Part shown: positions 3,534 to 48,799 of the stretch, piece after piece
Position numbering within the stretch: the stretch's first letter is position 1
How the letters are laid out: the number at the start of each line of letters is the position of its first letter
Assembly (NCBI GenBank): GCA_043228905.1
Contig: JBHGNT010000021.1
Location: forward strand, 7,006,001 to 7,070,000
Direction of reading: 5' to 3'
Length of the DNA stretch: 64,000 nt
DNA from: Azolla caroliniana
Lineage: Eukaryota; Plantae; Polypodiophyta
The notes under the pieces: generated by a model
The model's database searches: none
Told to the model about the DNA's origin: nothing
What the model saw: only the letters and a program-made list of their open reading frames with translations
Program-made: the position numbers and the translations under genes

Positions 3534-4545
3534 TGTTGAAACAAGTGTGGAGCCAGACGTAACAATCAACAATGGTTTGGTTTGAACCGAATCGAACTGA
3601 ATTGAACCGAACTGTGAAACCACGGCTTAACGGTTTAAATGGTTTGTTTAGGTTCAAGTTTTTTTAACAGTTCAGTTTGGGGGATGAATGGTTCAGTTCG
3701 GTTTGGTTTAGTTTGGTTTCAATGGTTAGAAACTATGGTTTAAAGGTTTTCTAATTTTTAAATTTAGAAATAAAAATAAAATTTGTTAACTTTTTTTTTA
3801 AACAATCTTTTCATTTTTAAGCTTAATTCTCACATTTTAGGAAATTTTAAATTTTTTTGAAACATTAAAATTAAAATAATGAAAAAATTTTAAAAATTTT
3901 AAAAATGAATTTTGACCTAAGTTGAAAACCGAAACCGAACCATGAAACCGCAGTCTTAATTGTTTAGATTTTTTTAACGGTTCAGTTAAAACGGTTTCAT
4001 GGTTTGGTTTGTTTTGGTTCAAGTTTCAAAAATTTTAAATGGTTTTGTTTCAAACCAGTTCGGTTTTGACACTCTCAAACCAAACCAAACCAAACTTTTG
4101 CTGATTGTTAGCCGGACGAAGTGTGAAAGTGGTGGATAATCGAAGCCGAATAACTGATTAAGTGTGAAAGCCGAAAATATTAATATTATTGCCGGAAATA
4201 TGTATAAAGTAGAAAATGTAAATAGTAGGCAGTTATAACAATCAATTATAAACGGTTTGCCGAAAGGCAATGTAACTGCTTCCATTCTTTCCTATATAAA
4301 GGGGCATGTGTATGGTACAAGTGGAGGAAGTTTAATATAGAAATATCTTTTGAGTATAGTGTGTCTATTGTGTCTGTGTTATTTTGAGTTTATAATTTAA
4401 GCGCGGAGTGCAGAGCCGATGGGTTGTAGCTGTCTCGAATAGTTGTTGTATAGTGAATTAGAAAGAGTCAATTGAACATAAGCTAATCAGACAAAGTTAG
4501 TGAATAGCTTATTTGTTTATAGATCGCTTGTTGTAAATTTCAATA
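3534..4545 (+). mobile_element. possible solo-LTR-like remnant hosting the MITE
   Basis: Ends TGTTGAAAC...TTTCAATA and a TATA-like ctatataaagggg at ~4292. No matching TSD found, so the boundaries are uncertain. Confidence 0.35.
3560..4110. mobile_element. non-autonomous hAT-type MITE with AAACC/GGTTT subterminal repeats
   Basis: TIR TAACAATCAACAA / TTGCTGATTGTTA; 8-bp TSD GCCAGACG (3552-3559) / GCCGGACG (4111-4118); AT-rich core. Confidence 0.8.
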
Positions 4546-13640: not shown

Positions 13641-13887
13641 TCGTGAAAATCCATCACTATGTGCGGATTGTGAGGCGGAACCGTCGGGGTTATGGACATG
13701 AAGGAAATAGGGCTGACACGCACAACACAAGGAAGGCTTACACAAACAAGGCACGAGTATTCAAACGTGTTTGTAAAAAAGGAGAGGTGCATGGGCAAGC
13801 CCGAATCAACCCCTAGTCGCAAGGTGAACGAATGCACGTGAAGAAGGCTTACACACGGACACACAAGGAAGGCTTACACAAACAAGG

Positions 13888-16800: not shown

Positions 16801-19581
16801 CGAGGAGACGGCTCACGCCCAAATAGAAGGGGAAGAAGAAGATGCCGGAATTCGAATCCGGCAACGATGAGTCGGATCGGTCTGCATCCAACTCTGGCAA
16901 GGAGAAAGGCGGATCTTCGGCAATGAAGACCGAACTAGCTAAGAAGGGCCTCAAACCGGGTAACAGTGAGTTACGTCGGTCCACCCGCAAGAAGGATCTC
17001 GTCAAGTAGTACGGGTACAATGAGTACATGGCGCATCACTATGCATACATGACTAAGGTGGCGGAAGTGTGTGAGCCGGAGAGCTACGCAGAAGCGGCCA
17101 AGGACACAAATTGGCATGCCGCTATGGAGGAAGAAATGCGGGCACTTGATGTCAACAAGACATGGGACCTGGTTGACCCTCCTCGTCATTGTAAACCGAT
17201 CGGATGCAAGTGGATATACAAGGTAAAGTACAACGTTGACGGTTCTGTTAACCGGTATAAAGCCCAGTTAGTGGCGAAGGGATATGCGCAGATCCACGAA
17301 ATCGACTACGACGAGACCTTCGCTCCTGTAGCGAAGATGACGACGGTTCGAGTGGTGCTGGCTGTTGTTGTGGCAAGGGGGTGGCATCTTCATCAGAGGG
17401 ATGTGAAGAATGCATTTCTTCAAGGTGATCTTGAAGAAGAAGTCTTTATGACTCAGCCTCCTGGTTTTCAATCAGAGATGAACAAGTCGGCGGTATACCG
17501 GCTGAAGAAGTCATTGTACGGCCTGAAGCAAGCCCCTCGAACTTGGAATGCGAAGATCAGGCACCAGTTGCATAAGATGGGGTTTGTGGCCTCCAAATCG
17601 GACTCTTCATTGTTCACCCGGCAAGGCTCAGCCAGTCCGATATGTATATTGTTGTATGTTGATGATCTCGTCATCACCGAACCGGGTGTCCTCGAAATCA
17701 ACCGCGTCAAGTCCCAGTTGTCAGACGCATTTGAGATGAAGGATCTGGGGGACCTTCATTATTTTCTAGGGATCGAGGTGATCCGAACCCCGTACGGAAT
17801 ATTGCTCTCACAACGACATTACGTCTTGATTATGTTGTACAAGTTCGGCATGACAGAATGCCGACCTGTATCCACACCCTTGGACCGGAACTAGAAGCTT
17901 CATCCCAACTCCGGACCGGGCTGCAACGAGCAACGGTTCCGACAAATTGTCGGAAGCCTTATTTACTTGACTATCACGCGACCCGACATCAGCTATCTGG
18001 TCGGAATGATAAGTCAGTTCATGCAGAAGCCGACCGTGGAGCACCTTCAGTGTGCGCAACGGATATTGCAGTATGTCAGTGGCACCAAAGACCAAGGACT
18101 GTTATACCAGCGAGGTATAACCGAAGAGCTCGTCGGTTACACGGATGCCGACTGGGCCGGCAATGCATCAGATCGCCGATCAACCTCTGGTTACATGTTT
18201 TCCCTAGGTAGCACGGTTGTTGCGTGGAGCAGTAAAAAGCAGCCAACAGTTGCTCTGTCGAGCACTGAGGCTGAGTATCAGGGCGCTACCATTGCCACCT
18301 GTGAAGCCATTTGGCTTTGGCGACTGCTGCAAGACTTACGGATCGAGGTACCGACCCCAATTCTGGTCTACTGCGACAACACAAGCAGCATGCAACTCGC
18401 CAAGAACCCCATATTGCATGCTCGCACAAAACACATAGAAGTGCACTATCACTTCGTGTGTGAGCGTGTCCTGAGCGGTGAGGTTGAACTTCGGTATTTT
18501 CACACGGATCGGCAAGTTGCCGACATCTTCACCAAACCACTCGGCTTGGACAAGTTGCAACACTTCACCGAAATGCTTGGTGTTCAGCATCTCGACGTGC
18601 CACACTTGAGGGGGAGAATGGGCAAAGACACCGGAACGGGCAAAGGCAAAGAGACTGTCGATTGTGCCGGTGAGGGAAGAATAGAAGGCAGCAAAGTCAA
18701 GGACAGAGCCGACCGAAGGAAGGAGGCCAAGACCCGGACATGGTCTGATGTGGTGAAGGGCTTGGAACCAGAAGACGAATCGGGAGCAACCAATTCGGAC
18801 AAGAGTTGGAACGAATCGGAGACAGTCGATTCGGTTCAAAAGACAGATTCGGAAGAACTGGATCAATTCAAGGCCAAGCAGACATGGATGCAGCGGAAGT
18901 CGATGCCATCGCGGAGAAACCGACGGATCGATAAGCGCCGGAGTCATAGCAACGAAGGAGTTGAGAGGGGCCTATTGAACAGACGTACTGACCGAGAAGG
19001 TCGAGGCGCGCAGAACAAGAGGGGTCGCGGCAAATAGAACCGGACAGGACGAGGAGCGCGAGCAAGGCGGAGCGACGTCAGGAGAAGTCGGTTGGAAGAA
19101 CCGGCTGCCACAGAGACTGACACTAAGATCCAACCTCAAGTTGAGCTTGAGGGGGAGTGTTGAGTGGCAAGCTCAACTGGAGCCAGATCAGCTGAATAAG
19201 CCTGAGCCAGCAAGCGAGACGGATCAGTAAGCTATGAGCAACTGAGCCAGCAAGCAACAGAGTCGGTGAGCTGGGGAGCTGGGGAGCTGGGGAGCCGGAT
19301 CCAATCAGTAACCGGAAGCCTAGTATTAGTGTAGACTACTAGGCAATTATAGTCTCGTAGTAAGTGTCAAATGCTCGTGTGAGCATTGAAGTACGCGGTA
19401 CTTTTGTTAGTCCCACGAGGACTTGTATAAATAGTGCTACTGAGCACAATTGTAAAGACAGAGAGTGAATATATCATTTTTTAATATAGTTTTTACGTTT
19501 TGCTCTCTCTGTCTCTCTTGTGTACTCTGTATATTCCCTGCGATCTCCGTTTTCTAACGCTTCCGCAACTAATCGTTTTCA
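13888..19581 (+). mobile_element. full-length but decayed Ty1/Copia LTR retrotransposon
   Basis: LTRs 13888-14303 and 19158-19581 (TG..CA, visibly diverged); TSD CAAGG; PBS TGGTATCAGAGC 14304-14315; PPT GAGGGGGAG 19149-19157. Gag with CWYCGKKGHIESEC, protease WYIDSGAS, integrase, RT LYVDDL and RNaseH YTDADWA; multiple stops and frameshifts. Confidence 0.95.
14411..19037 (+). pseudogene. broken Copia gag-pol polyprotein
   Basis: ORF-track pieces 14396-15358, 15409-15627, 15967-16335, 16387-16656, 17028-17894 and 17967-19037 fall in Gag-PR-IN-RT-RH order. Confidence 0.9.
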
Positions 19582-19679
19582 CAAGGCACGAGTATTCGAA
19601 TGTGTTTGTAAAAAGGAGAGGTGCATGGGTAAGCCTGAATCAATCTCTAGTGACAAGGAGAACAAATGCACTTGAGGGA

Positions 19680-21989: not shown

Positions 21990-22248
21990 GACATGAGGTA
22001 TACATAATGTACATTATACATATGTATATATGTAGTAAGTAGTCTTAGAACTTAGAAGGAAGCTTTTCCTTCCTATCATTTGTTATTTATTGAGCCACAC
22101 ACACACAAACACGGAGCCAAACAGACAGACAGACACAGAAGAGAAGGGCTTTCCAGAGCTTTGGAAGGTCGGTCCTTCTGAAATTAGAGAAGGTTCCCGC
22201 AGAGACAGAGACAGACAGACAGACAGACAAAGCGGTCTGAGAGAAACC

Positions 22249-23781
22249 ATGGCTTTCCCACATCCTCATCATCATCTTCATCCTCATCCTCATCCTCAGC
22301 ATGAGCAGGGATACAACCACTTTGAAAGGAAATCAGATCATCATGCCTCCCTACGTCCTCCATCGCTCGCATTATACCATCAATTACCACTCCCCCACCT
22401 TGCCCCTTCCCCTTCCCCTGCCTCTGTCCCTCCTCCATCTCTGGTTCAAGCTATGCTTGCTGCGATCTCAGACAGGCCAGAATCGTCGTCTGATGCCATG
22501 ATGATCAAATCGGCGTTGGATATCTCGCACCCTGGCCCTCCTTTGGGATCAGCTTCCGATGATGTTGTTTCGCATCCGGACCCTCCAGCCGGATCAGCCA
22601 CAGGTATCCCGCCTCTTCCTCGGAGATCGAAGAAGCGACGAGATGGGCATACTAAGGTCGACGGGAGGGGGACTAGAATCCGCCTGCCTGCCATTTGTGC
22701 AGCTCGCCTATTTCAACTCACACGGGAACTGGGGCATAAGTCTGATGGAGAAACAATCGAGTGGCTCTTACGCAAAGCGGAACCCTCGATTGTCGCAGCC
22801 ACTGGATCTGGCTCTGTCCCTGCTGCGTTTGTTTTGACCTCTGGATCTAAGTCTAGATTGGCAGCGGGGTCCGCCGTACCAGCATCATCATCACCATCGC
22901 AATCAGCCACATTGAAATCACCTTCATCATTCATGGCCCCATTGACATCACCATCATCATCATCAATGGCCACTGCAGCAGCATCATCATCTTCATTGTC
23001 TTCTCATGCTCAACCCAGCTATGGTTCTTCTCAGAGGTATTCCCCACCTCGGCATCGGGCTGATGATGATGGGTTGCCCCACCTTGCTTCCTCCCCTCTC
23101 GAGGATGATGTTAAGCCAGCTTTCACACACAGCCATTTCCATCAATGGATGAACACATCGACATCTTCGTCACCTCCTCATATAGATGTAAAGAAGGTCG
23201 CGAGACACAGATCCGATGCTGTGGATTCTAGTGAAGAAAGCAACAGGAGATTGAAAAGAGAGGGAGAACAACCCAAAAGAGATGATGATGATGACGATAA
23301 CGATGACAGTAGTAGACCCGTATTTCCCACGGCAAAAAGGTCGGCTATCCATCCTTTTCCTTCAGCCAATCTGGACACAGCTCGATCATCATCTATGAAT
23401 GAATGCTCCTCTTTGGGTGTTATGTGGACAAATGGTCATCGATTATGGAACCCCCTTTTTGCTCCACCCGCCCACATGACTCCCTTTTCAATGTCAAGGG
23501 GAGATGGAGATAGAGTAGATGACATTATAAATTCGACTGACGGTTCGGGTTCTTATCATTCTTTCCCTGTGCTTCATTTGAATTCTATGCAGCACCATCA
23601 TGAGCAAGGAGTAGAGGAGGTAGAGAATGGAGGTAAATCAGATAACGGGGGGTTGAATGAATCAGATCCTACTTCAGAACATGATCATAGAAAACAGGGA
23701 AAAGAAGAATATGAAGATGAAGATGAAGATGAAGAAGAAGAGGAAGAGGAAGAGGAAGATGAGTCACATGGAGATGACTGA
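22249..23781 (+). CDS. TCP: class I (PCF-type) TCP transcription factor, intronless, ~510 aa
   Basis: [54 protein letters not shown] is a class I TCP domain. ATG in good context (ACCATGG); His/Pro-rich N-terminus and acidic C-terminus. Confidence 0.93.
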
Positions 23782-32529: not shown

Positions 32530-34428
32530 GGCGTCTCTGTGTGTGTGCTTGTGTTTCAGTTCGTAATTCAGAACTCGGGGTATGGCAAATGCCCCCCCCC
32601 TATACTTTCTTAAATTACTGAAATGCCCTTATCTTTTCCTAAATTGCCGAAATGCCCTTGTATTTTCCTAAATTGCCGAACTGCATATGGAAGCCCTTGG
32701 CAAGGTTGTCGTCAAGGTATTCACATAGCTCGCAACATAAGACTTAGGGAATTTTTTCACCCATAATTGAATCTATCAAAATGATTCATCCATTGGATCT
32801 TTCTAGGAACCAGAAGGATGATTAGACATATATATAGAGAGTAACTGTTAGCCATTACTATATATTATTACATTAGGTTCGTACATTGTAACGAAGCCCT
32901 CTTAATATCCAAGTATAACTTGTTCTACATTGTTATTAAACCTCTCTCTTTGTTAGTCTCTTCCATTGTGTTCCAATTTTTCCTATAGTCCTATGCCAAG
33001 GTGTTAATTAGTAAGCTCGACCTCCACACTACATACAATTTCGAGCTCATTCATGAAGGTGAGAAATGGAAATTCGCATTTTGTGTCCCATTTGTTTGTG
33101 ATTATTGCTTCGATAGTGGGTTGTGGCCACCACATCAAGCACCTGCACCCAAGACACGTGCAAGAAATGTCTCTCCCATTTTGTAGCAGTATCAAAACTA
33201 CTCACTCATAGGCCATCTTAGTATCCCAAAGATGCTCAAGGTTAGCATGCACTACCACCATTGGCCAAGCTTCAAAAAAGGACTTGGTGGAGAGTGTGTG
33301 GTTGTGTTGATTGCGTGCTCATTCCAGTTTTCCCATCACACACCCCACGATTTGTTGCAATTGGTGTGCATTTCTAAATCACCCATTCGCCTCCCTCACA
33401 TGGGACTCCATAGAGGAATTGTCCCCCCTCTAGGATCAAGACACAATTGTCATGATGGTGTATTGCTTGACCAAGATGGTCCATTTCCTCACGTGCTCCA
33501 ACACTATCACTACCAAACAATGTCCCCTAACCTATTCCTCTAGTCTAGTGTCCTATTGCATGGCCTTCTCGATTCAATTGTGATTGACAACAGCCCACTA
33601 GTTATAGGTAGACTCAGATGCGAGATGCTCTTCTCATCTGGTATCACCCACAAACCAACGGCCAAGCAGAACTCATCAATCAAGTGTTTGGAGAAATACT
33701 TCCTCTTTATGGACTATAACCAAACCAAATGGCTCAAGCTCCTACCATTTGTTGAGTTCACGTTGTCGCGTTGTTACGCGCGTGCGTGGAGAAGGGCGGA
33801 ACCACGGGGGTCTCGGACTAAGGAGAAGGGGAGAAGGAATAGGACTTCGGAATGGAGCTTAGCACAAGAAGAGAAAGAATGAACAAGAGGAAGATGGAGG
33901 CCAAATGCTCAACAAGATGTATTAGAACCGAAAACCGATTACAAAATGGCGGCCGCGTAGGCCGCACCGAACGGCTATGATAAACCCGAAACCCTAATCC
34001 GACGAAGAAGAAAAGAAACCCTAACCCTAAAACGAAATGGTATACCTCACTCACACTCAAAATAAGGCAACCCCCACAATGGTGCTCTTCCTCTCCTTTT
34101 ATAGCACAAGGAGAGAAGACCGTTTTCAAAAAGGGTGCTACAAAATATCCCCTTTCAATCAATGGGGATATTTCCCTTGATTTTAGGGGAGGAGGGAAGG
34201 ATGGGTCTTAACTCCCACCTCTACACGAACTACTATGTACCTATCTCTCTCTCTCACGTGGATGTGCGCGCAAAAGCACATCACCTTTACACTTTACAAA
34301 TCCTAAGGTGCATTTCTAGCACCATACTTATCACTATCGATAAATAGAAATACAACATGGTGATGTGCAACGTTGCACATCGCGGGTTTGCTTGCTTCGC
34401 TCGGTTTTCCGCCTATGGACGAAAATCT

Positions 34429-37400
34429 TCACGACATCCGCCCCCACCTAACCGCACATCCACCGGTATGTGCCAAAAGGGGAACAAAACGCGAGATTTT
34501 CGGCCAAGGCGGCCAACCGAGCCCTTGACAACCTCGTGGGCTTGCCCGGCTTCGTCTTCCACTTCGAGCAAGTCCACCCCGTCCACACGAACCACCGTCG
34601 CCTTCCGGCCCACCATCTCCGTCGAATGGTCTCGAACCGTCGGCTCCGTCCGATCCGCCACACTTGACGACGTTCGCCGAGTCGTTGCCTCCACCCGATC
34701 CGCCACGTCCACCGTGTTTCCTCGAACCACCGTCTACATCCGGACCGCCGTTTCCGATGCCCGCACTTTCTTCCCCGATCGGTCCTCCCGAACGCCGTTG
34801 CCGACCCTTTGTCCGCCTCGCATATCCTCCGGATCCGCCTTTTTCATGCCGCGCACCTCGTCGTGCCGACTCTTCTCGCTCCGCGCTTGCCTTCCGTAGG
34901 CCTCTCTCGGTGCCTTCATCCATTGTGGCCTTCGTCCCCTCGCCGCCACCGTTCGCCACTCTTGGTCTCACGTCGGCACTCGCGCCGACCGCCGGAGTCT
35001 CTATAGCCGGTGTGGAGGATCCCTCTCGGGCCTTATCTTCGTGGCCGCCGGTCTTAGCCTCTCCGTAGGCCACCTCTTCCCACCAATCTTCCCTAGCATC
35101 GTGCCAGGTCTTGTCGTCGTCGCCTTCCTCCTCGTATTCGCCTCTCGAAGGCGTGATCCGACCGTCATCTTCGGTTGCTCGATGTGGTTCCTTCGTAGGC
35201 ATGCTTGTGTCTTGGCCCTCCATCGGCCGTATTGCATGCATCTCGTCTCGCTCTTCCGCCGTAGACCCGACCTCCGTGTCGGTCTTCTCCTCCTTTGTCG
35301 CCGTAGCCCGTCCCGACACGGGCTCGCCGTCTTGGACCCATCCGTCCACCATCTCGTACCGGATATCCGTTCCGGTAACCTCGTACGCTCCGGCCTCCGA
35401 CTCCTCGCCGCCACCCGCCGTCTCTCCGGTCTTATGTTGATCCGCAACCGCCGTAGTCTCTAGAGTGGGTATGGAGGGTCTCGTTTGTTTCCGTTTTTCC
35501 CCCGAACCATGGTCGTCGTGCCCGGTTAGCCTCCATCTCGCGCTTACCGGCTCCCATCGTAACCGTAACCGCAACCGTAACCGGCCAATCGGTCTAGCCG
35601 GCTTCCTTCGGTTTGGGCCCGGTTCGCCGGCCCTTACTCTCTTCCTCTTCCGTGCCGTATTCCGGTCGGGACGGTTCCCGACTCTCTCCTCGTTTCCGCT
35701 CCGGTCCTCTCCGTCGGACCCACCGTATACGCCCATTCCGGGCCCCGCATACTCGTCTTCGTATGCGCTCTCTCCGGGCCTCACCTCCTCACGGTCACCG
35801 CCCATCTCTCCGGTCTCACGTTGGCATTCGAGCACAACCGCCGAAGTCCCCGGCCCCGGTGTCAAGGGGTCTTGCCTCCGTCCGCTCCAATCTTCCTTCT
35901 CGTTTCCGTTGCCCGCCTTGCCGCCGTTACCTCCCGTCGCACTAAGCCTCATGCCGGCACTCGGGCCGGCCATTGGAGCCTCTAGGATTGGTGTGGGTAA
36001 GGACCCGGCACCGCCGCTCGTTGTCTCCGTAGCCGCTTTCGTTCGGACGTCGTTGTCCGCGGCTCCCCCATCTCCGATTCCGTAAGCCTCTAGTATGCTT
36101 GCCACCACCTCTTCTTCGCCGTTCTCCGCATCATTTTGTTTGCCCGCCTTGCCGCCGCCACCGCCCGTCGTTCTAGGTCTCGTGCCGGCACTCGGGCCGA
36201 CCGCCGAAGCCTCTAGGGCCTGTGTGTGGAAGGTCGCAGCACCACCGCTCGCCTCCTCTCCGCTCGATGTCTTGGGCCGCCGTGCCCCGAATCTTCCGCC
36301 CACTTTCGAAGTGGCGCTCTCCGCACCGGCCTCATCCTTGGCCGTCCATTCGCCGCAAGACGAGAGGGTTGCTCGCTCCGCACCCTCTCCCATGTCGTCG
36401 TCGTTTCGGTGGCCCGCCTTGCCGCCGCCACCGTCCGTCACTCTAGGCCTCTCGCCGGCTCTCGGGCCGGGTGCCGGAGTCTCTAGGACCGGTGTGTGGA
36501 AGGTCGCGACACCACCACTCCTCTCGTCCGTAGCCACCTCCATTCGGACATCGTCGTCCGTGGCTACCCCGTCTTCGGTTTCGCAAGCATCGAGTATGCT
36601 TGCCGCCGCCTCTTCTTCGCCGGTCCCGTCCTCATCTCGGTTGTCCGCCTTGCCGCCGCCACCGTCCGTAGCTCTAGGTCTCGTGCCGGCACTCGGGCCG
36701 ACCGCCGAAGCCTCTAGGGCCGGTGTGTGGAAGGTCGCGACACCATCGCTCGTTTCGTCTTCCTCCTCCATTTCGCAAGCCTCGAGTATGCTCGCGAAAT
36801 CCTCGTAGAACGTTTCGTGCAACCGCGTCCCGAAACTTCCGCCCACTCTCGAAGTGGCGTCCATCGCTCCGTAGATATCGGCCTCGTCCATGGCCGTTCT
36901 TTTTCCCCGAGATGAGAGGGTCGCTTGCTCCGCACCTTCTCTCGTGTCGACGCCGTGGTCGCCCGCCTTGCCACCGCCACCGCCTTTCACCATAGGTCTT
37001 ACGCGGGCACTCGGGCCGGCCGCCGTGATCTCTAGGAATGACGCGTGTAAGGTCGCGGGACCGCCGCTCGTCGATGTAATGTCCGTAGCCACCTCCGCTC
37101 GGACGTCGTTGTCCGTGGCTACCCCGCCTCCGTATATGCAAGCATCGGTTATGCTTGCCGCCGCCTCTTCCGTGTAAGAAATAGACGCTTCGATTCACCT
37201 TCTTCCTTTCGGCCACAACCGAGTAATCGCGGATCAATGCAACAGAAAATAGAAACCAAAAGAGAAAAACACACGAGTACGCAGGGATTAACGTGGAAAA
37301 CCCTAGATGGGAAAAACCACGGGAGTACAAGACTCCAAACAACACTATACAAGAGAAGTATACAATGACGAGCTCCAAGGCGACGACCTTGAGCTCGCTG

Positions 37401-40400
37401 TCCTCGCCACAGGCGGCGGAAATACACAGAGGCGTCGTCCTCTTCCTCTCTCGCGCTCTATCTCTCTCTCTCTCACGGCTGCTCCCTCTTCACACCTCTT
37501 AAGTGGAAAAACAGAAAAATGATAAGCAACAGTAAAACTGTTTGCCCTAAGTCATATTTATACTTATATGACTTTGGGCTATTTACAACTGTAGCCACAT
37601 GGGCCCATAGGAAACATATTCACGGATATGTCCCTGCATCCGGATCGCTCTCCGGGTACATTCGTCATCCGGTACCGAAACCGAAACCGGGACCGTCCCA
37701 TCCGGATCCGACCATCCCATTCGAAGGGACCGTAATCCCAACAAACTCCCCCTTCACTTCGGCATGGGATGTCTCTCCAATCCGATCCTCTTCCGGCATG
37801 CTTCCAGCTTGTCGGGTGTGAGCACCTTGGTCAGCATATCCGACCCGTTCTCGTCCGTGTGGATCTTCGTCAGCACGAACTCCTTGTCTTCTATCCTTTC
37901 CCGGATCCAGTGATATCTTCGCTGGATGTGCTTCGTCCGGGAGTGATAGGCCGCGTTCTTTGCAAGGTGGATTGCACTCTGACTGTCGCAGTAGAGTCGG
38001 TACTCCTTCTGCCGGATACCGAGCTCTCCAATGAAGTCCTTCATCCATATTATTTCCTTGCCGGCTTCAACAGCTGCCATGTACTCCGCCTCCGTGGTTG
38101 ACAACGCAACCGTCTTCTGCAGCCTCGACTGCCACGAAACAGCTCCCCCTGCATACGTCATCACATACCCTGATGTGGACCGGCTGGTATCTGCATCAGC
38201 CGACATATCCGAATCGGTGAAACCGTCGAGTTCGGGTTTACCGGAGCCGAATCGGAGGCACACGTTTGCCGTGCCCTTCAGGTATCGGAGTATCCACTTG
38301 ACCGCGTTCCAATGCTCTTTGCCGGGATTGCTCATGTACCGGCTCACCACTCCGACTGCATATCCGATGTCCGGTCTCGTACACACCATGGCGTACATCA
38401 AGCTCCCGACGGCTGAGGCATACGGCACTTTCATCATATCCTCCTTTTCAGCCTTTGTCTTGGGACTTTGCTTGCTGGACAGCTTGCAGTTTGTCGGGAG
38501 GGTCGATCCGACCGGTCTTGCTTCCGACATGTTGAACCGGTGAAGCACCTTCGTCACGTACTTCTCCTGTGACAGCCACAACTGCTTCTTGCTCCGGTCC
38601 CGGATGATGTGCATCCCTAGTATTTGTCTCGCCGGACCCAGGTCCTTCATTGAGAAGGTTCGGTGAAGAGCCTTCTTCAGCATCCGGATCTTGACCTGGT
38701 TCCGTCCGACGATCAACATGTCGTCCACGTACAGGAGGAGTATTAGAAAGTCTCCTCCTTCGAACTTCTTCACAAACACGCAGTGGTCGGACTGCGTTTT
38801 GAGGTACCCTTCGTCGGTCATGAAGGAGTCGAACTTCCGGTACCATTGCCGGGGAGCCTGCTTCAGTCCGTAAAGGCTCTTCTTCAGCCGGCATACCAGG
38901 TGCTCCTTCCCTTTCTTCTCGAATCCTTCCGGTTGCTGCATGTAGATCTCTTCTTCGAGGTCACCGTGAAGGAATGCCGTCTTCACGTCCATCTGTTCTA
39001 CCTCGAGGTCCATGCTTGCCGCTATGCTCAGCACCGTCCGGATGGAGGTCATCTTCACTACCGGGGCAAATATCTCGTCGAAGTCGACGCCCTTCTTCTG
39101 CTGAAACCCCTTCACCACGATCCTGGCTTTGTATCTCGGGGGGTTTCCGGCATCTCCCGGTTTCAGCTTGAACACCCACTTGTTTCGAAGTGCCCGCTTT
39201 TCTTTCGGCAACTCCACAAGTTCATATGTGTGGTTCTCATGCAGGGAATCCATCTCGTCCTGCATGGCACTCAACCACCTGCGGCTCTGAGTGTCATGTT
39301 TTGCTTCTTCAAAGCTCTCCGGCTCCCCCTCGTCGGTTAGCAGCACGTGCTCTGGTTCCGGAAATCTCCGGGGGGCCCTTCTCTCTCTTAGAGGATATCT
39401 CCGTTCCGGAGCTTCGGTAATCGGTTCTTCCGATTCTTCTTCATCCGAATCCATTTCGGGATCGGGGCCGGTTCCGGTATCATTTTCATCTTCTTCGGTC
39501 GGTTCGGTTTCTTCACCGTCTTCGGCCGGATCCTCGAGTGCTAACCGGTCCCTTGCCGGTCGGGACTGCTCCTCGTAGAGTTGATCCTCACCGGTCGACT
39601 TGGAGCTCTTCATCTTCTTCTCCGACTCCCAGTCGGCGAGTGTCTTGTCCTCCATGAAGATGATGTCTCGACTCCTGAATATCTTCTTGTCGACCGGGTC
39701 CCATACTCGGTAGCCGAACTCGTCGTCGCCGTAACCGAGGAATATGCATGGCCGGGTCTTTGGATCTAGCTTCCCTCTCCGGTCCTTTGCCACATGCACG
39801 TATGCGAGACACCCGAACACCTTCAGATGCCGGTAGGATACTTCCCTACCGGTCCACACTCTCTGCGGCGTGTCTCCGTCCAAAGGTACTGAGGGTGATC
39901 GGTTTATCACATATGTCGCCGTCGACATTGCCTCAGCCCAAAACCCCTTGGGTAATTTCGCATGCGCCAGCATACTCCGAACCCTCTCCATTATGGTCCG
40001 GTTCATCCTCTCGGCCAGCCCGTTCAGTTCCGGCGTCTTCGGCACAGTAAACTCGAGTCGGATTCCCTTCGAGCGACAGTACTCCTGGAACTGCCCCCGG
40101 TATTCCCCTCCGTTATCCGCTCGTATTGCTTTCAGCTTCTTGCCGGATTCCCTTTCCACTCTCGCGTGGAGATCTTTGAAGACGCACAACACTTGGTCCT
40201 TTGTCTTCATCGGTGCCGTCCACAGTTTTCGGCTATGATCATCGATGAATGTTACGAAGTACTGGGCTCCGCCATGTGACTTCGTTTCTACCTGACACAC
40301 ATCAGTGTGCACCAACTCCAATGGTGCGCTACGTCTCGTCGGTGGCCTTGAGTGGAAGGAAGTTCGGTTCTGCTTACCGGCCAGGCAATCGGTGCACTTC

Positions 40401-43400
40401 TCCAGGTGCACATGCTTCACTGGGATAAGGTTGTCTTCTGCAAGCCTCTTCATCCCCTTCTCACTCATGTGGCACAGTCTTTTGTGCCACAGCTCACCGG
40501 CAGTGTCGGCTGCCACATTCAGCTCTTCCGGACATAACCGGGCATTCATCAGGTACAGTGTGTTGTCTTTCCGGGCCCGAGCCACTATCAGGCTCCCCTT
40601 GCTGAACTTCATTACGCCGTTCTGGATGCTACCCGTGTAGCCTTCGTCATCTAGCCTCCCGGCCGAAATCAGGTTCAGTCGGACCTCCGGAACGTGTCGG
40701 ACATTCTTCAGCAGCATTTTGCATCCGGTCGGGGTTGTCAACCACACATCTCCTATGCCAGCAATCCGGCACGTACCTTCGTTTCCCATCCGAACACACC
40801 CATGCTCACCGGCTGTGTAGGATGAGAAGTATCTTCTCTCCGGGGTCAGGTGGAACGATGCTCCGGAATCGACCACCCAGGTCGTCTCATCGCCGGCAAT
40901 GTTTAGCTCACCTTCTTCGGTGATGAGCATGATTTCTTCCTCACTTGCCGCGAGTGCCGTCGTTCCTTTCCGGTCCTGCCCTCGCCGATCCGAACCTCTC
41001 CGGTCCGTGGCTCCCCGGTATGCACCGTTTCTCTCCGGTGACTTCTTCGAATCGGAGTCGTCGGCTCCGTTGTCTTTTCGGTAATGCCGACAATTCTTTC
41101 GGAAGTGCCCCGGCTTCCCACAGTGGAAGCATGTGGGCCTTCCTCTTGACTGCGACCGGGTCCCCGACTTCTCCCGTCTTTGCGGACTCCGGTTCCATTG
41201 TCTTCCCCGATCCGATTCGGTAAGCAGCGCCTTCGGGTCGGAGGTCAGTTCTTTATCTCTCCGACGCGCTTCTTCGTTCAAAATACTTGTCTTTACCGTT
41301 TGCAAGGACAAGTTATCTTCGGTGCAGGAGGTGCTGAGAGTCACCACCAAGTTCTCCCAGCTGTCCGGCAATGTACACATCAGGATGATGGCTTGCATTG
41401 CATCCTCCAACGGGAACTTGATTGCCGCAAGCTGGTTCACGAATCCCATGAACGTGCTCACGTGTTCCACCATACTCTCGCCGTCCCGGTACTTGAGATT
41501 CACTATCTTCCTCATCAGGGAGGTCCGATTCAACGCATTCTTCCTCTCGTAGAGGCCCGACAGCTTCTTCCACATTTCATATGCGTTGGTGTCGTTTGCC
41601 ACATGTTGTAGGACGCTTACATCGACATATTGTCGGATCGTCGCTACGGCTTTCCGGTTCAGGAGCTTCCACTCCGACTCAAGTACCCCCTTCGGTATTT
41701 CCGACCTGTCAATCGGTTCGTACAGGTCCCGAACAATCAGAAGATCCTCCATCTTGATCTTCCAGTCGGCGTAATTCTGTGCATTCAGCACCATCATCCC
41801 CGGCTGCCCGCTGCCGCCGCCTTCCATTTTCTGCAACAGTCGCTCTGATACCAATTTGTAAGAAATAGACGCTTCGATTCACCTTCTTCCTTTCGGCCAC
41901 AACCGAGTAATCGCGGATCAATGCAACAGAAAATAGAAACCAAAAGAGAAAAACACACGAGTACGCAGGGATTAACGTGGAAAACCCTAGATGGGAAAAA
42001 CCACGGGAGTACAAGACTCCAAACAACACTATACAAGAGAAGTATACAATGACGAGCTCCAAGGCGACGACCTTGAGCTCGCTGTCCTCGCCACAGGCGG
42101 CGGAAATACACAGAGGCGTCGTCCTCTTCCTCTCTCGCGCTCTATCTCTCTCTCTCTCACGGCTGCTCCCTCTTCACACCTCTTAAGTGGAAAAACAGAA
42201 AAATGATAAGCAACAGTAAAACTGTTTGCCCTAAGTCATATTTATACTTATATGACTTTGGGCTATTTACAACTGTAGCCACATGGGCCCATAGGAAACA
42301 TATTCACGGATATGTCCCTGCATCCGGATCGCTCTCCGGGTACATTCGTCATCCGGTACCGAAACCGAAACCGGGACCGTCCCATCCGGATCCGACCATC
42401 CCATTCGAAGGGACCGTAATCCCAACATTCCGCGGTCTCCTTACCGTTGTCTCGGTTGCCCGCCTTGCCGCCACCACCGTTCTTCTCCCTCGGTCTCACG
42501 CGGGCGCTCGGGCCGGCCGCCGTGGTCTCTTGAACCGGTGCGTGGAAGGTTGCGGCACCGCCGATTGTCTCCTCCGTACTCGATGATTCGGGCCACCGTG
42601 TCCCGAATCCGCCATGTCCGCTCGAATAGGCGATCGCCGCCTCACCGTCCCCGACCTCGTCCCCGGTCGTTCTTTTCCCCCATGTCGAGAGGGCGGCTCG
42701 CTCCGCACCCTCTCCCGTGGTACCGATGTACCATTCTCTTTCGGCCTCCGCATAGGCCCCGTCCTCCATGTGTGAGGAAGCTCCTTCCTCCGCGTCCTCC
42801 GATCCGCTCGGGCCCGACCCCGCAATAAGCCATTCTTCGGCTTCGATTTTCGCCATTACGAGCCCGCACGCCTCCCGTATTAGCGCTTGTAGGTCGAGCC
42901 CCTCCAAACCGGTTCGCGATGAGCTCTCGTCCGGCGGCATGGCGTAGTTGGTCGTCGCTCTCTCTTCTCCCCCGCTCGCGGGCCGTGTTGTGGCCGACCG
43001 CCTCGCCTCATGTTGCCGACACACCCATTCCACTTCGGGCCACTCCTCGGTGAGACCATGCGCCCCATAATCGTCTTGAAGCTCGAACGTGATGTCCATC
43101 CTCTCCTCATGATGGACCGTCTCCAAAAATAGGAGGACTTTGTCCGCCCCCACCGATCTTCGTTCCCACTCCGAGAGTTGAGAGAAACGACGCTCGAACT
43201 CTCGGAATGCCTCTATTGCGCTCCGATGGCGCCTCGCCGACGCCATCCACCGATCGAACTCTCGCCGACCTCTTACCTCCGATTCCGCGCACCCGTATGC
43301 CTCCATTAGAGCCCCTTCAAAGGACTCCCACGATTCGTGAGCTTCTTGGAGCTCCTTGACCTCCTCGTACTTTGATGCGGCCGCCGCTCGACGAAAGAAC

Positions 43401-43609
43401 TCTAGCCTCGTCGCTTCGTCCACGCCCATCCCCGTCATTTCCGCATCGTAGGCTCTCAAAAATTTTGGGACCTCCTTCCCATTGAACCGGCCGACTAGAC
43501 GGACCACCCTTTCGACCGCTTGTTGAGCCGCCTCTCGCCTCGCCCTCTTCCGTCCGGCGTCCGTCAAGATCTTTGTCATCATCTCCTCGAAGTCGAAGCC
43601 TTCCTCCAT
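34429..43609 (-). CDS. Gag-like plus repetitive polyprotein (~1306 aa when reconstructed), interrupted by the Copia at 37173-42427
   Basis: Segments 43609-42428 and 37167-34429 join in frame (ETAE|EAAASIT) once the Copia and one TTCCG are removed. The N-terminal GRFNGKEVPKFLRAY..SWESFEGALMEAY is retrotransposon-capsid-like. Confidence 0.8.
37173..42427 (-). mobile_element. intact Ty1/Copia retrotransposon (Tnt1/Tto1-like)
   Basis: 571-bp LTRs at 37173-37743 and 41857-42427, apparently identical; TSD TTCCG; tRNA-iMet PBS at 41842-41853; PPT AGGGGGAG at ~37746-37753. Confidence 0.97.
37754..41827 (-). CDS. uninterrupted Copia Gag-PR-IN-RT-RNaseH polyprotein (~1357 aa)
   Basis: CFHCGKPGHFRKNC, WVVDSGAS, LWHKRLCH..CTDC, VHTDV..ADNGGEY..NGLAER, LLYVDDML and GFTDSD; no stops. 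Confidence 0.97.
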   Translation of the reverse strand: MEGGGSGQPGMMVLNAQNYADWKIKMEDLLIVRDLYEPIDRSEIPKGVLESEWKLLNRKAVATIRQYVDVSVLQHVANDTNAYEMWKKLSGLYERKNALNRTSLMRKIVNLKYRDGESMVEHVSTFMGFVNQLAAIKFPLEDAMQAIILMCTLPDSWENLVVTLSTSCTEDNLSLQTVKTSILNEEARRRDKELTSDPKALLTESDRGRQWNRSPQRREKSGTRSQSRGRPTCFHCGKPGHFRKNCRHYRKDNGADDSDSKKSPERNGAYRGATDRRGSDRRGQDRKGTTALAASEEEIMLITEEGELNIAGDETTWVVDSGASFHLTPERRYFSSYTAGEHGCVRMGNEGTCRIAGIGDVWLTTPTGCKMLLKNVRHVPEVRLNLISAGRLDDEGYTGSIQNGVMKFSKGSLIVARARKDNTLYLMNARLCPEELNVAADTAGELWHKRLCHMSEKGMKRLAEDNLIPVKHVHLEKCTDCLAGKQNRTSFHSRPPTRRSAPLELVHTDVCQVETKSHGGAQYFVTFIDDHSRKLWTAPMKTKDQVLCVFKDLHARVERESGKKLKAIRADNGGEYRGQFQEYCRSKGIRLEFTVPKTPELNGLAERMNRTIMERVRSMLAHAKLPKGFWAEAMSTATYVINRSPSVPLDGDTPQRVWTGREVSYRHLKVFGCLAYVHVAKDRRGKLDPKTRPCIFLGYGDDEFGYRVWDPVDKKIFRSRDIIFMEDKTLADWESEKKMKSSKSTGEDQLYEEQSRPARDRLALEDPAEDGEETEPTEEDENDTGTGPDPEMDSDEEESEEPITEAPERRYPLRERRAPRRFPEPEHVLLTDEGEPESFEEAKHDTQSRRWLSAMQDEMDSLHENHTYELVELPKEKRALRNKWVFKLKPGDAGNPPRYKARIVVKGFQQKKGVDFDEIFAPVVKMTSIRTVLSIAASMDLEVEQMDVKTAFLHGDLEEEIYMQQPEGFEKKGKEHLVCRLKKSLYGLKQAPRQWYRKFDSFMTDEGYLKTQSDHCVFVKKFEGGDFLILLLYVDDMLIVGRNQVKIRMLKKALHRTFSMKDLGPARQILGMHIIRDRSKKQLWLSQEKYVTKVLHRFNMSEARPVGSTLPTNCKLSSKQSPKTKAEKEDMMKVPYASAVGSLMYAMVCTRPDIGYAVGVVSRYMSNPGKEHWNAVKWILRYLKGTANVCLRFGSGKPELDGFTDSDMSADADTSRSTSGYVMTYAGGAVSWQSRLQKTVALSTTEAEYMAAVEAGKEIIWMKDFIGELGIRQKEYRLYCDSQSAIHLAKNAAYHSRTKHIQRRYHWIRERIEDKEFVLTKIHTDENGSDMLTKVLTPDKLEACRKRIGLERHPMPK

Positions 43610-43630
43610 CTCTTTCTCCCTTGCCGCCCT

Positions 43631-43647
43631 TCACGTCGGGTTCACCA
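43631..43647 (-). promoter_or_regulatory. primer-binding site complementary to the 3' end of cytosolic tRNA-Trp
   Basis: The + strand reads TCACGTCGGGTTCACCA, matching the plant tRNA-Trp 3' end plus CCA; 4 nt from the LTR. Confidence 0.85.
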
Positions 43648-44639
43648 AAGATGTCGCGTTGTTACGCGCGTGCGTGGAGAAGGGCGGAACCACGGGGGTC
43701 TCGGACTAAGGAGAAGGGGAGAAGGAATAGGACTTCGGAATGGAGCTTAGCACAAGAAGAGAAAGAATGAACAAGAGGAAGATGGAGGCCAAATGCTCAA
43801 CAAGATGTATTAGAACCGAAAACCGATTACAAAATGGCGGCCGCGTAGGCCGCACCGAACGGCTATGATAAACCCGAAACCCTAATCCGACGAAGAAGAA
43901 AAGAAACCCTAACCCTAAAACGAAATGGTATACCTCACTCACACTCAAAATAAGGCAACCCCCACAATGGTGCTCTTCCTCTCCTTTTATAGCACAAGGA
44001 GAGAAGACCGTTTTCAAAAAGGGTGCTACAAAATATCCCCTTTCAATCAATGGGGATATTTCCCTTGATTTTAGGGGAGGAGGGAAGGATGGGTCTTAAC
44101 TCCCACCTCTACACGAACTACTATGTACCTATCTCTCTCTCTCACGTGGATGTGCGCGCAAAAGCACATCACCTTTACACTTTACAAATCCTAAGGTGCA
44201 TTTCTAGCACCATACTTATCACTATCGATAAATAGAAATACAACATGGTGATGTGCAACGTTGCACATCGCGGGTTTGCTTGCTTCGCTCGGTTTTCCGC
44301 CTATGGACGAAAATCTTCACGACAACGTTCAACAACAATGATCACGAGCTTATTGGCATGTCATCGTTCATGGCGAATAAGAATTTCCATGAACCCTCTT
44401 TTGATCAGCGCAACTAAACCCACTATTGAATAACGCATTTGCCAACTCCACAAAATCTCACAATGATGCTCAAGTAGTTACTGACAACAAGCTTAAAAGG
44501 CTACAAGAAGCATGCAGATACACGTCCTACATCAAACTTGGGGAAAAGGCTGAGAACAAGGTATGGTTGAAGTGTGGCAACATCAAGATAACATGCCCAT
44601 GCATCAATTTCAGGTCAGACACACATTGAAGGAGACATC

Positions 44640-47375
44640 GTGACGAGGCAAACCTCGAACTCGGGCGGAATCCCGACGTGCGGCAGAGCTCACCTTGGAA
44701 CAATCGCAATAGAAGAATCCTCATTTAACGACACCATCGGCGAAATCGAGGAATTCGTGAACTTAAGTTATCCTTGCGATCAACACGTGATTTTAGTTAA
44801 CTCTGTCAATGTGTACGCTGTCATCGATGAATATCATCGTGGCATCTTGATGGAGGAAGCTGAAGTCAACACAAAATATAAAACAGTGGATAGGAAGATC
44901 AAGCCAGTTGCAGTTCCGCTACCAGAAGATAGCTGGCAAAAGATGAAGGAAGTTGCGAATGATCCAAGCTTGAGAGATCCGAAGACAATAGGTCACGTCT
45001 TCACTGAAGACACTAAAGGAAAGCTACGAGTTGGAAGGGAGGATTTCCTCCTCCCTGAAGAGGAGCGAATGTTCTACGGAATGCTTCAAAGACATGGGAA
45101 GGCTTTCACATTTTCCCCACAGGAAATCGGATGTGTTGATCAAAGGATGATAGAACCGATGGTGATCTTCACAGTGCCGCATGTGCCTTGGAATTTGAAA
45201 CTGATACCGGTTCCAAGAGCACACCTACCGAAGTTGATTGAGCTCTTAAAGGAGAAGGTGAATATGGGAATTCTAGAACCGTTGAATGCTCCTTACTCTA
45301 ATAGGTGGTTCACGGTGCCGAAGAAGAATGGATTGTTGCGATTCATCCAAGATCTTCAATGCATCAATAAGGTGACAGTTCAGAATGCTGGAATCGGTCC
45401 GAGTGTGGATGAATTTGTTGAGGCGTTTGCAGACCAGTCCATCTACTCCATTGGCGATCTCTACTCTGGATACGACCAATTCCAGTTGGTGGTTGACAGT
45501 CGTAACATTACAACCATGAGGACTCCGATCGGGCTTGTGCGGATGTGTACCTTACCTCAAGGTGCAACGAACTCAATGGCTCATATGGTGAATGCCATGA
45601 ACAAGGTCTTGAAGGATTGCATCCCGAGAATCGCAATGCCCTTCTTGGATGATATTCCGATAAAGGATGTTCGGATGAATCGAAAGATAAGGATGGATGC
45701 AGAAAGTTCGTCAAAGATCATATGAAGGATTGCGAGAAGGCATTACAAAGGCTCGAAGATGCGAATTTGACATTTTCGGGAGAAAAGTCCGCATTCGGGC
45801 AACCGAATATCTTGATGGTAGGTCACTTGTGTGGAGCATACAACCGGAAGCCTTCACCATCCAAGGTGAATGCGATCCAGGACATCAAAGAAGAATGTGT
45901 AACCCAAACGGAGGTTCGAAGGTTCCTTGGAGCATGCGTGTTTTATCATATTTGGATTCCTCTCTACACCCACATTGTTGAGCCATTGTACGATTTGCTA
46001 AAGAAGAAGCAAAGGTTTGAATGGAGGAGTGAGCATACTTTTGCCATCCGAAGGCTGAAGAAATTACTGATGGAGGAACCTGCATTACGGAAGGCGGACT
46101 ATTCAGAAGGCAAGCCCATTTTCATGACTCTGGATACTAATCCGACCAGAATCGGATGGGTTATCAACCAAGAAGACGAAGATTGCAACTGATACACAAT
46201 TTGGTTTGGCACAAAAGTGTTAAGTGATAGGCAAAGAAGGTATGCCCAAGTAAAGAGGGAGTTGTGGGAATCGTATCGGTGATCAAGTCTGATCGTGACT
46301 ACCTCATTGGAGCAGAAGTCATAATCGAGGCAAATTGCCTACTAATATTGGGCATGATATCTAGTTGCAGTACACAAGATATTGCCATGTTACGTTGGAT
46401 CGCATATATGAAATCACTCAACCCCGAGATCCGTCATGTAGTCTGGAAGCATAATGTCGTTGCAGACATGCTATCACAAGGGAGATAAGACGGAGAGGAA
46501 GATCGACATTCTGATGAAGAGGATGTTGGCTTGGACTTCTTTACAAGTTCCTACCCTCGGGTGCTGACTACTTTCATATAAGAGGACTACGAAGGCGCAT
46601 TCGTGGAGATCAGGAAATACTTGAGTTCTCTCCAAAGAGATGAATCTTGGTCGACAGAAGACTTTTACTGAATTCGGAAGAAGGTGTACAAGTATTTCCT
46701 TAAGAATGGAGCTCTTTGGAGGCATGCAAAGAAGAAGAAGAATGGGACTCCAATGCGAGTTGTCTGCAAGCTGGAAGACCAATGAAAACTTATGTATGAA
46801 TTTGATGATAGTGTTTGGGCAGGCCATTGAGGAATATGGGCTATGTTTGCGAAGCTTAAGGAGAAATATTGGCGGTCAGGCATCTACAAAGATGTAGCTG
46901 CTTACGTGGAAACATGTAATGAATGTCAAATGTTTTCGAATGTTCGCCATTGAGATGAACTTCATTCGACTTACCCGTTGCCTATGCATTACAAGTGGAT
47001 GGTGGACATCGTAATGATGCCAATGGGGTGATGGCAGATGAAGTATCTTGTGTTCGCGAGAGAGGAGCTTACCAATCAAGTTGAAGGGCGAGCATTGAGA
47101 ACTAAGGAGACATCATCAGTATGCAGATTCCTTCTTGAATATGTTATTTGCAGCTATGGATGCGTCAGCAAGATAGTGACTGATGGAGGCGAGCTAGACG
47201 CCAATGAAGCTAGAGAATTCTTCTCTAGGATGGGAATCAAGTTATCTCTTACCAATGCGTATAATCGGGAAGCGAATGGGAAAGTGGAACGTGCACATGG
47301 ACCAATTGTGAAGGCTCTAGTGAAAGCTTGCAATGGGAAAATAGGAGAATGGCCGCGTCCACTGCCATTTGCACT
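44640..47375 (+). mobile_element. decayed non-chromovirus Ty3/Gypsy pol (RT-RNaseH-integrase), Phygy/Selgy-like by resemblance
   Basis: KYKTVDRKIKPV, IFTVPHVPW, LRFIQDLQ, DLYSGYDQF, LPQGATNS, PFLDDIP, the RNaseH region and IVTDGGE..NGKVERAH; several stops and frameshifts. Confidence 0.85.
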
Positions 47376-48799
47376 GCTACCAATTGTTTCCCTTGATACG
47401 CGGAGTCATATATTGTGCCTTGATTCATCTATGTTGAGTTTTACATTCTGTGTAAACGTTTACGTAACCATTTGGTTGTAGCCGTCTCGTGTTCATCTCC
47501 ACAGTAGCACAATCACACTTGTTCGATTCATACGCGAAGACCTTATCATCCGAAGTTTCCAAACTATTTGAAGTGGCGCCCTTCTCCCAGAACACAATAC
47601 CTTGAGTCAAATAGACAAAGGACCAGATATTTAACACCGTGTTACCTAGCCCCGTAACAACAAGTTGCATTCCATGCTTGTTTTTGTGTCTATATGAGTT
47701 TGACAAAACCTTGTGAGGATACATAACTCCTATGTGAATTAAGTATCTAGGGCCAGGAGGCTAATGAAAAGGTGCATTTGTTGTGAGATTTAGAATATGT
47801 CGTGTATAATGGGTATATTTCTTTCTTCTAGCTTTGAGAGGTATGAGGTGTATGCAGACTTGATGAGGTATGGGTAGTTGGGATTTGAGGATATAGTAGT
47901 GTGGAACAAAACCATCCCTTCTAATGATAGAATGGGGAGTGGGTGGGGGAAAAGCTCATTAACGGCATGCAAAATCGTCGTTCGCACGTGGCAGGTACAA
48001 TATGAAGAGAGCGAACTTGTGGTTGACCATCAGTGTCATGGAGATGATGTGTTGGCCTTCAAACATCCTAGAGGTTTCTTTACAATTTAATATTTGCTTC
48101 ATGTCTAACAAATCTAGCAATGTATATTCATCTTGCTCCAAAATGCCTTTTGACATTTGTGATTTTGCTTCTACGTAGACTGACACACGTCAAATAGTTG
48201 ACATGGATGGGCAATGTCAATCAATTGTGCAATAGTCAAAGCATACACATGTGGTGGTAATCAAGAGGATCTTCAAATATGTCAAACATGAGACAAATTC
48301 TGGTTTTGAAGTAAATTAGAAAAAATTATTTATTAAGTTAAATTGTAATGCAAATGTGGGCAAGACAAAGCACAACTCATATATTGTGTTTGTTTAACAA
48401 TGCAACAATGATGTGCATGTTGAAGAAGTAACCCACAATTGCTTTAAGCATAAGTTAAGCTAAATACAAAAGTGATTGGGAAGTGACTGTGTATGTAGCA
48501 TGTGAAGTTATATGGATGGAGAAGTTGCTAAAAGACCTTAGAGTTATTGCGCCAAGACTAAATACAAACTCTTTTATGTTGGAGACCAAGTTAGTCCAAT
48601 GCCAAGGCCAAACACATAGATTTCACTAGTAATGGGCCCGGTTCAATTTCTTGGCCTTGAAACCAAACCAAACCAAACCAAACTATTTTAAAATTTATAA
48701 AGCCATTTAAACCAAACTGTTTAAAGAAAAAGTAAAACCAAACCGTTTACAAAAAATTTAAAACCAAACCAAACCTTCTTCTTTTTTAATTTTTTAATT

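Follow-up and report, generated by a model that had tools for sequence, protein, structure and literature searches.

Among described retrotransposons, the closest in outline to the element reported here are the TR-GAG elements, which have long terminal repeats (LTRs), a primer-binding site (PBS), a polypurine tract (PPT), a target-site duplication (TSD) and a single Gag open reading frame (ORF), carry no reverse transcriptase, RNase H or integrase (RT, RH, IN), and are apparently active (PMC4350172). Our element occupies positions 33764–44324 of the minus strand in a 64,000-nucleotide stretch of the fern Azolla caroliniana (assembly GCA_043228905.1, contig JBHGNT010000021.1, positions 7,006,001 to 7,070,000; hereafter the window). 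TR-GAG elements stay below 4 kb, their TSDs measure 5 bp, and the ORF of TR-GAG1 encodes 433 aa including a zinc finger. The Azolla element lies outside that definition in size and TSD (5.3 kb, 4 bp), and it is set apart by ORFs of 600–1500 aa without a zinc knuckle, by internal repeats and by a purge of the trinucleotides CAG and CTG (together CWG, W being A or T). Such non-autonomous categories are reported to blur (PMC13570524).

The ends of the element resemble those of Phygy, a non-chromovirus Ty3/gypsy clade described from Physcomitrella: its TSD has the 4-bp form NCGN reported for 100% of 186 Phygy elements, 81% of which have a tRNA-Trp PBS (PMC6317226). Its capsid (CA) is related to Gag-protease (gag-PR) proteins from elements whose pol is in gypsy order. 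Phygy itself is 7.7–10 kb long with a polyprotein filling the interior, whereas the Azolla element is pol-less. The CWG purge recalls the LTR of ONSEN (ATCOPIA78), where the absence of target sites for the chromomethylase (CMT) CMT3 was read as an escape from the loop between CHG methylation (H being A, C or T) and dimethylation of histone H3 at lysine 9 (H3K9me2) (PMC3907296). ONSEN concerns one promoter of 28% GC without CG and without all CHG, whereas here the whole element is affected, including the coding capsid and an interior of 58–65% GC, and CWG alone is absent while CG and CCG are kept. With regard to the reading frame, the nearest parallel is the subgenomic shGAG RNA of Copia, a gag-only RNA that likewise must avoid a long stop-rich 3' untranslated region (UTR), which predisposes to nonsense-mediated decay (NMD) (PMC5580714); Copia shortens its RNA, whereas this family would lengthen the frame until it reaches the 3' end of the genomic RNA. 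Two-lobe capsid folds, and Gag forms with the C-lobe only, are known from Arc/dArc, Ty3, PEG10 and the Ty1 capsid C-terminal-domain (CA-CTD) restriction factor Drt2. These are domesticated or autonomous proteins, whereas C-lobe-only forms occur here in high-depth, long-tailed LTR elements. At the level of titles and abstracts, with subscription journals outside the search, we found no description of an element-wide CWG-specific purge or of a stop-purged neutral tail.

By its sequence, the element is a recently inserted, pol-less, Gag-only copy of a Ty3/gypsy family with Phygy-type ends. Its two LTRs (43652–44324 and 33764–34436, 673 bp each, TG..CA ends) show no mismatches and are flanked by the 4-bp duplication ACGT (44325–44328 on the 5' side, 33760–33763 on the 3' side). 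The features described below suggest that this Phygy-like family probably evades both CMT silencing and NMD while using a borrowed pol.

Depletion of CAG and CTG

The LTR, capsid and tail of the element together contain 3 CAG or CTG where 155.9 are expected (Poisson probability 1e-62): none against 19.5 in the 5' LTR, none in the capsid-coding region (42995–43609) and 3 against 95 in the downstream part of the tail (34429–37167). The relatives used for comparison come from two protein searches (5 and 8 relatives, ∼8,000 candidates scored in each) and from a metagenome scan on gag motifs, in which 91 pattern matches gave 17 loci; this selection is by motif and independent of ORF length. The same depletion is seen in L001, the Copia-free sister of the window copy (1 observed/149 expected), in L006 (1/94), the non-autonomous interior of L009 (1/107), L010 (2/76 and 0/30) and L008 (0/15), and five of the eight high-depth family loci stand at 0.00–0.03 of expectation. 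The comparison sequences keep their CWG: the ratio is 0.69 in the gag-PR gene, 0.77 in pol and 0.78–0.80 in the LTRs of a candidate helper element, 0.86 in the ORF of a nested Copia, 1.16 in a host TCP gene and 0.66–1.05 in the host flanks, where the CpG ratio is ∼0.5. The encoded protein does not force the loss, as synonymous reshuffling yields 81–121 CWG against 1 observed. CTG is the commonest leucine codon in the helper pol (25 of 88), though silently replaceable, whereas the family has no CTG among 46, 31 and 28 leucine codons. In the CWG-free loci, single changes that create CWG number 2 against 87.8 expected, in a test made on loci picked as CWG-poor, while changes creating other motifs stand at 0.96–1.59 and those creating TAG at 0.48. 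We consider selection against CWG highly probable.

Methylated cytosines deaminate, and CAG and CTG might instead have been lost by mutation, either through deamination of heavily methylated CWG or through a sequence-specific editing enzyme. Transitions do dominate, and CWG is mildly low in the helper and in one flank (0.66–0.80). However, CAA, CTA, TAG and TTG, into which the lost sites should have turned, show no excess (72 versus 71.7), CpG is enriched within the element (observed/expected 1.3; 0.98 in the LTR), the reverse of decay driven by methylation, and both the helper and the Copia retain CTG at positions where a silent change could remove it. Low-depth copies are moreover richer in CWG (0.05–0.43 in the six of nine loci measured, L013, L016 and L017 lying outside the table, as does a second clade known as proteins only) than the CWG-free subfamilies, and the sites therefore appear to return after insertion. 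We regard a mutational origin of the depletion as very unlikely.

Since CAG and CTG are both missing from one strand, the signal lies in double-stranded DNA. Avoidance might be enforced by a host factor other than a CMT, such as another reader of double-stranded DNA, or CAG might be avoided as a splice acceptor. Either would leave the same signature, and the somewhat low number of TAG-creating changes could be counted in their favor; yet a TAG deficit is expected from the purging of stops, splicing does not explain why CTG on the sense strand is depleted like CAG, and CCG is not depleted within the element. Loss of CWG and not of CCG fits the known division of labor, in which methylation of CAG/CTG needs CMT3 only and that of CCG needs MET1 too (PMC5221884), and we give these alternatives little credence. 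CWG is the preferred site of CMT3, which feeds the H3K9me2 loop (PMC8995044), and a moss CMT lays down CHG methylation de novo (PMC6453930). CMT3-type enzymes methylate CAG and CTG independently of MET1, and a CWG-free element would therefore escape the CHG-H3K9me2 loop. Evasion of CMT is, in our assessment, the quite probable cause of the CWG loss.

An open frame with a neutral tail

The ORF starts with an ATG at 43609, continues from the capsid into a low-complexity tail in the same frame (42428–42994), and is interrupted by a nested Ty1/copia element (37173–42427, minus strand), whose 571-bp LTRs are identical and which has a TSD of 5 bp and an intact gag-pol ORF (37757–41827). The downstream tail (34429–37167) adds 912 codons without a stop. 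Joined, the two halves make 3921 nt, which amount to 1306 codons and a stop that lies 8 nt within the 3' LTR, and the element without the Copia measures 5301 nt. A preliminary description of the locus from the letters alone had reported matching LTRs, TSD, PBS and PPT, and an in-frame fusion of the two halves upon removal of the Copia. The former were all verified, and the latter agrees with the frame arithmetic and with the sister P0001/L001 (98% DNA identity), whose open 1419-codon ORF spans the insertion point and confirms the junction. The read-through of the PPT into the LTR, also reported there, is true of this copy but specific to it. The window copy lacks L001 positions 3813–4161 (349 nt, at 34899–34900), and because of this frameshifting deletion its last ∼156 codons leave the family frame, pass the Arg/Trp-rich C-terminus out of frame and enter the LTR in a second frame, which is also open in L001. 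The contigs of all four runs aligned to L001 carry the undeleted form, and among 15 of 39 joints none matched the deletion; read-through as a family trait is ruled out by L001 and the run contigs. The family frame closes in an Arg/Trp-rich basic stretch, with the stop shortly upstream of the PPT in P0001, P0004 and P0005 and within the LTR in L009, L010 and P0008.

The family extends well beyond this copy. The other relatives share 59–63% identity over the N-terminal part and have ORFs of 890–1520 aa with differing numbers of repeats, and the second clade comprises 16 proteins of 400–720 aa with the same layout. In a tree of 28 rows, 14 of 15 tail-bearing capsids fall into one clade (support 100/99). 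The 84 pattern matches among viral contigs included no relatives. Across 11 studies, 20 of the 24 runs listed contain the stretch wholly or in part, under several organism labels, and one of them may be the source of the window itself. Contigs of runs X11, X19 and X20, guessed to be RNA, span much of the element; they do not show strand or expression, and we did not use them as evidence.

The gag frame of the downstream half is free of internal stops; the other sense frames have 22 and 20, and shuffled sequences ∼27. GC-richness, the caveat attached to the open frame in the preliminary description, is ruled out as its source by the other frames and the shuffles, together with the purging of stops in the gag frame only. 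The stops in the three sense frames, gag frame first, number 0/25/22 in L001, 0/14/19 in L006, 0/19/21 in L009, 2/17/19 in L010 and 2/21/16 in L011, where neutral simulation gives 4–11 at 5–10% divergence. We pooled the distinct alleles of seven high-depth loci and of L001's own repeats, excluding CWG-making changes and separating CpG transitions. Stop-making alleles in the tail number 12 against 57.9 expected (0.21; shifted frames 0.96 and 1.05), while non-synonymous alleles number 1116 against 1132 (0.99; shifted frames 0.97 and 1.00). In the C-terminal 150 codons, stop-making alleles are absent (8.1 expected) and the non-synonymous ratio is 1.11. The pairwise ratio of non-synonymous to synonymous rates (dN/dS) against L001 in the tail is 0.90, 1.10, 0.88, 1.05 and 0.84 for the five of six pairs that reach it. 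On these comparisons of sequences, the gag frame is kept open by selection, and the amino-acid sequence of the tail is unconstrained. The preliminary description had held that a tail kept open suggests a protein that matters, and had named neutral dN/dS or random stops in sister copies as evidence to the contrary. The frame is indeed under selection and stops are purged rather than random, but the amino acids are neutral.

Could the tail nevertheless act as a disordered protein, with an acidic spacer and a basic Arg/Trp patch replacing the zinc-knuckle nucleocapsid, binding RNA or forming condensates, so that composition and the end motif matter? In most full-length members the net charge is negative and then strongly positive (+18 to +33 per 100 aa close to the C-terminus), a W/R motif ends 11 of 13 aligned proteins from two clades, the tail is attached to another gag in P0175, and, besides the missing stops near the C-terminus, gains of hydrophobic residues reach only 0.72 of expectation in frame. 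These gains are also low in the other frames (0.93 and 0.79), however, and W and R interchange through TGG/CGG, a transition at CpG. The non-synonymous ratio stays neutral at the C-terminus and in the W motif (0.94), charge-changing substitutions stand at 1.02, and no clear signal emerged from tests by amino-acid class (conservative, radical, charge, hydrophobic). Short compensated frameshifts distinguish sister copies, and in the window copy, whose LTRs are identical, the motif lies outside the reading frame. We therefore regard a protein role of the tail as unlikely.

The relatives show several further features. In P0175 and P0182 other types of gag appear to supply the N-terminus to which the tail, or the C-lobe and tail, is joined, which suggests module swapping. 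In P0003, ∼630 aa are duplicated internally and almost exactly, as judged by eye and possibly as an assembly artefact; one segment also seems to be read in a shifted frame. L006, L008, L009 and L010 contain PPT-LTR-PBS junctions resembling tandem elements, which are probably joins made in assembling collapsed repeats. In L017 a putative PPR-like ORF (2327–3223, minus strand) lies beside a distant decayed copy.

Predicted capsid, covarying repeats and candidate helper

The first 205 residues of the ORF comprise an N-terminal helix, the CA N-lobe and the C-lobe. The AlphaFold model of residues 1–206 (pLDDT 92, 48 sequences), which resembles Arc, PEG10 and Copia capsids, predicts for residues 26–206 the two-lobe fold of an Arc/Ty3 capsid; a structural comparison of this part of Gag with capsids had been proposed at the outset. 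A structure search of 48,161 chains gave eight at Z≥8, all of them retroelement-derived capsids. The best match is dArc1 (Z 10.0, root-mean-square deviation 7.2 over 158 residues; for the N-lobe alone Z 9.0, 1.9 over 69), such Z values being modest for helical proteins. Foldseek ranked the same capsid proteins first, none at E≤0.001, and Pfam gave no domain at E≤1 in either ORF half. Homology to gag-PR proteins lends independent support to the capsid: a profile search gave 466 matches to them at E≤0.001, DUF4100 or Retrotrans_gag was found in 12 of 27 that were scanned, and the CA is 27% identical to the gag of L009 (E 2e-26). One match of the profile search, P0098, was rejected as a spurious helical-repeat match. 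The L009 gag carries a CCHC knuckle, whereas a scan of the sister protein found no CCHC pattern.

Unlike the tail, the capsid is under purifying selection. Pairwise dN/dS against L001 is 0.51–0.68 in five pairs, and the pooled non-synonymous ratio is 0.60 (shifted frames 1.51 and 1.49), with 0.56 in the C-lobe and 1.0, on few alleles, in the N-lobe. Some 85 N-lobe residues are missing in several high-depth subfamilies. C-lobe-only Gag forms occur in P0004, P0005 and P0006 and in the high-depth loci L006 (position 69), L008, L009 (7536) and L010 (2957), and are reminiscent of CA-CTD restriction factors such as Drt2. The coding region of the C-lobe in the window contains two clean adjacent hairpins (43100–43209, minus strand; z −1.4, control fold).

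The open frame might alternatively serve co-translational packaging in cis, with a ribosome-bound nascent CA lobe taking its own transcript into helper particles. This predicts the same signature of purged stops and free amino acids, and it would suit a C-lobe that is under purifying selection and is the sole lobe in P0004, P0005, P0006, L008, L009 and L010. It leaves the CWG purge unexplained, however, and the protein ends vary near the PPT among subfamilies; we think it improbable.

The window copy has six full copies of a repeat of ∼110–127 nt, plus weaker ones, spaced in multiples of 3. The first lies in the upstream tail (42443–42569) and the five others between 35896 and 37072 (36946–37072, 36628–36754, 36397–36523, 36127–36253 and 35896–36022), with a decayed copy at 34915–35034. 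The repeats covary as a long imperfect hairpin: 15 copies define a stem of 32 pairs, 11 of them compensatory, a number reached in 0 of 500 column shuffles and exceeding slid controls (0–5 pairs). Tree-aware, conservation-matched nulls give 1.8–2.5 pairs and reach 11 in 0 of 300 replicates in each of three settings. The helper has no match to the repeat, and Rfam gave no matches at E≤0.5 over 33700–44400. We believe the hairpin is probably functional. CWG depletion and covarying hairpins, neither of them remarked on in the preliminary description, are constraints on the nucleic acid and not on the protein.

No hidden pol was detected by Pfam in either ORF half or in the sister ORFs, or by tblastn with helper proteins, in which the helper gag-PR and pol matched, within the element, the CA region only. 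This and the missing CCHC pattern in the sister protein agree with the initial reading of the element as free of protease, RT, RH and IN motifs and of a CCHC knuckle. Autonomous elements sharing the LTR ends and PBS had been named as a target, and L009 contains a candidate with a gag-PR of 721 codons and a pol of 1152 codons in RT-RH-IN order. Its PBS is identical to the 18-nt PBS of our element (43630–43647), which begins 4 nt past the 5' LTR and ends 20 nt before the ATG. The first 14 LTR nucleotides are likewise identical, U5 is 78% identical over 83 nt, and the pre-PPT region is 89% identical over 53 nt; PPT and pre-PPT form a common block (34437–34480), with the PPT adjoining the 3' LTR. 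ACGT stands beside an LTR end in L009 too, as in one contig of run X19. The argument for a helper rests on these shared ends, adjacency in L009 being set aside. The PBS may be of the tRNA-Trp type; three viral-contig matches contained no tRNA, and a text search gave nothing. Adjoining the element on the opposite strand is a decayed, frameshifted pol of the same lineage (44709–47376, plus strand) with 58–65% aa identity to the L009 pol, which keeps its CWG (0.79).

Proposed cycle and significance

The cycle that we propose would begin with transcription from the CWG-free LTR, with the element staying outside CMT/H3K9me2 heterochromatin. Unable to sustain the CHG-H3K9me2 loop, it would show a gene-body-like pattern, with most of its methylation at CG. 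The genomic RNA would be translated from just past the PBS to the PPT. A stop at ∼260 codons would leave a stop-rich 3' UTR of 3–4 kb, whereas ribosomes running to near the PPT could shield the genomic RNA from NMD; for avoidance of RNA surveillance as the reason for the open frame, we see the chances as about even. The tail would mainly carry the hairpin repeats as candidate packaging or dimerization signals, while the C-lobe, which several high-depth subfamilies retain alone, would hook the element into helper particles. Once CA lobe and hairpins had brought the RNA there, the helper would supply the RT and integrase for its copying and for insertion at NCGN. The fuller version, in which a family relieved of encoding pol mimics a gene throughout, being CWG-free with gene-body-like CG only and having its gag padded with meaningless codons to the 3' end so that the genomic RNA is taken for an ordinary mRNA, with packaging hairpins inside and a C-lobe hook in some subfamilies, is put forward more tentatively, as somewhat less likely than not.

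Several points weigh against this reading. The constraints and the shared ends are observed; every causal step is inferred. The sister loci are collapsed metagenome contigs. Besides the choice of CWG-poor loci for the allele test, L002, L005 and L011 stand at 0.19–0.28 of expected CWG, CWG-making alleles reach 33 of 48.7 expected (0.68) in the other three high-depth loci and 16 of 33.1 (0.48) in eight low-depth loci, and CCG, which likewise belongs to the CHG sites, is abundant, whence the escape from CMT could be partial. L010 and L011 each carry two stops in the gag frame, and L005 is rearranged, with 18 gag-frame stops over a stretch that may leave the element. The recurrence of the basic Arg/Trp-rich C-terminal motif in the second clade would fit a protein role as well. 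Taken singly, six of the repeats are no more stably folded than shuffled sequences (z −0.3 to +2.1), the reverse strand also covaries (10 pairs), and gene conversion among repeats could inflate the covariation. As for the helper, the first two L009 LTRs are 78% identical and L009 is probably a mosaic assembly, in which adjacency is no proof of pairing; helper and element CA share only 27% identity, and their sister position is weakly supported (80/65).

The rest of the window contains a second copy of the nested Copia family (60611–64000, minus strand), 95% identical and cut by the window end, an older Copia-like element (13746–19675, plus strand) with LTRs ∼88–90% identical and a broken gag-pol, and the host TCP transcription-factor gene (22039–23781, plus strand), which lies ∼10 kb from the element.

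Few clean cases are available of transposon sequences evolving to escape plant CHG methylation, or of RNA surveillance shaping reading frames. The family described here shows an element-wide, CWG-specific depletion of ∼50–100-fold with built-in controls in the nested Copia, the candidate helper and older copies that seem to regain CWG, and the observed/expected ratio of CWG could be used as a genome-wide screen for such elements. Selection for translation is separable here from selection on the protein, which calls for caution in reading long ORFs of transposable elements as functional proteins.

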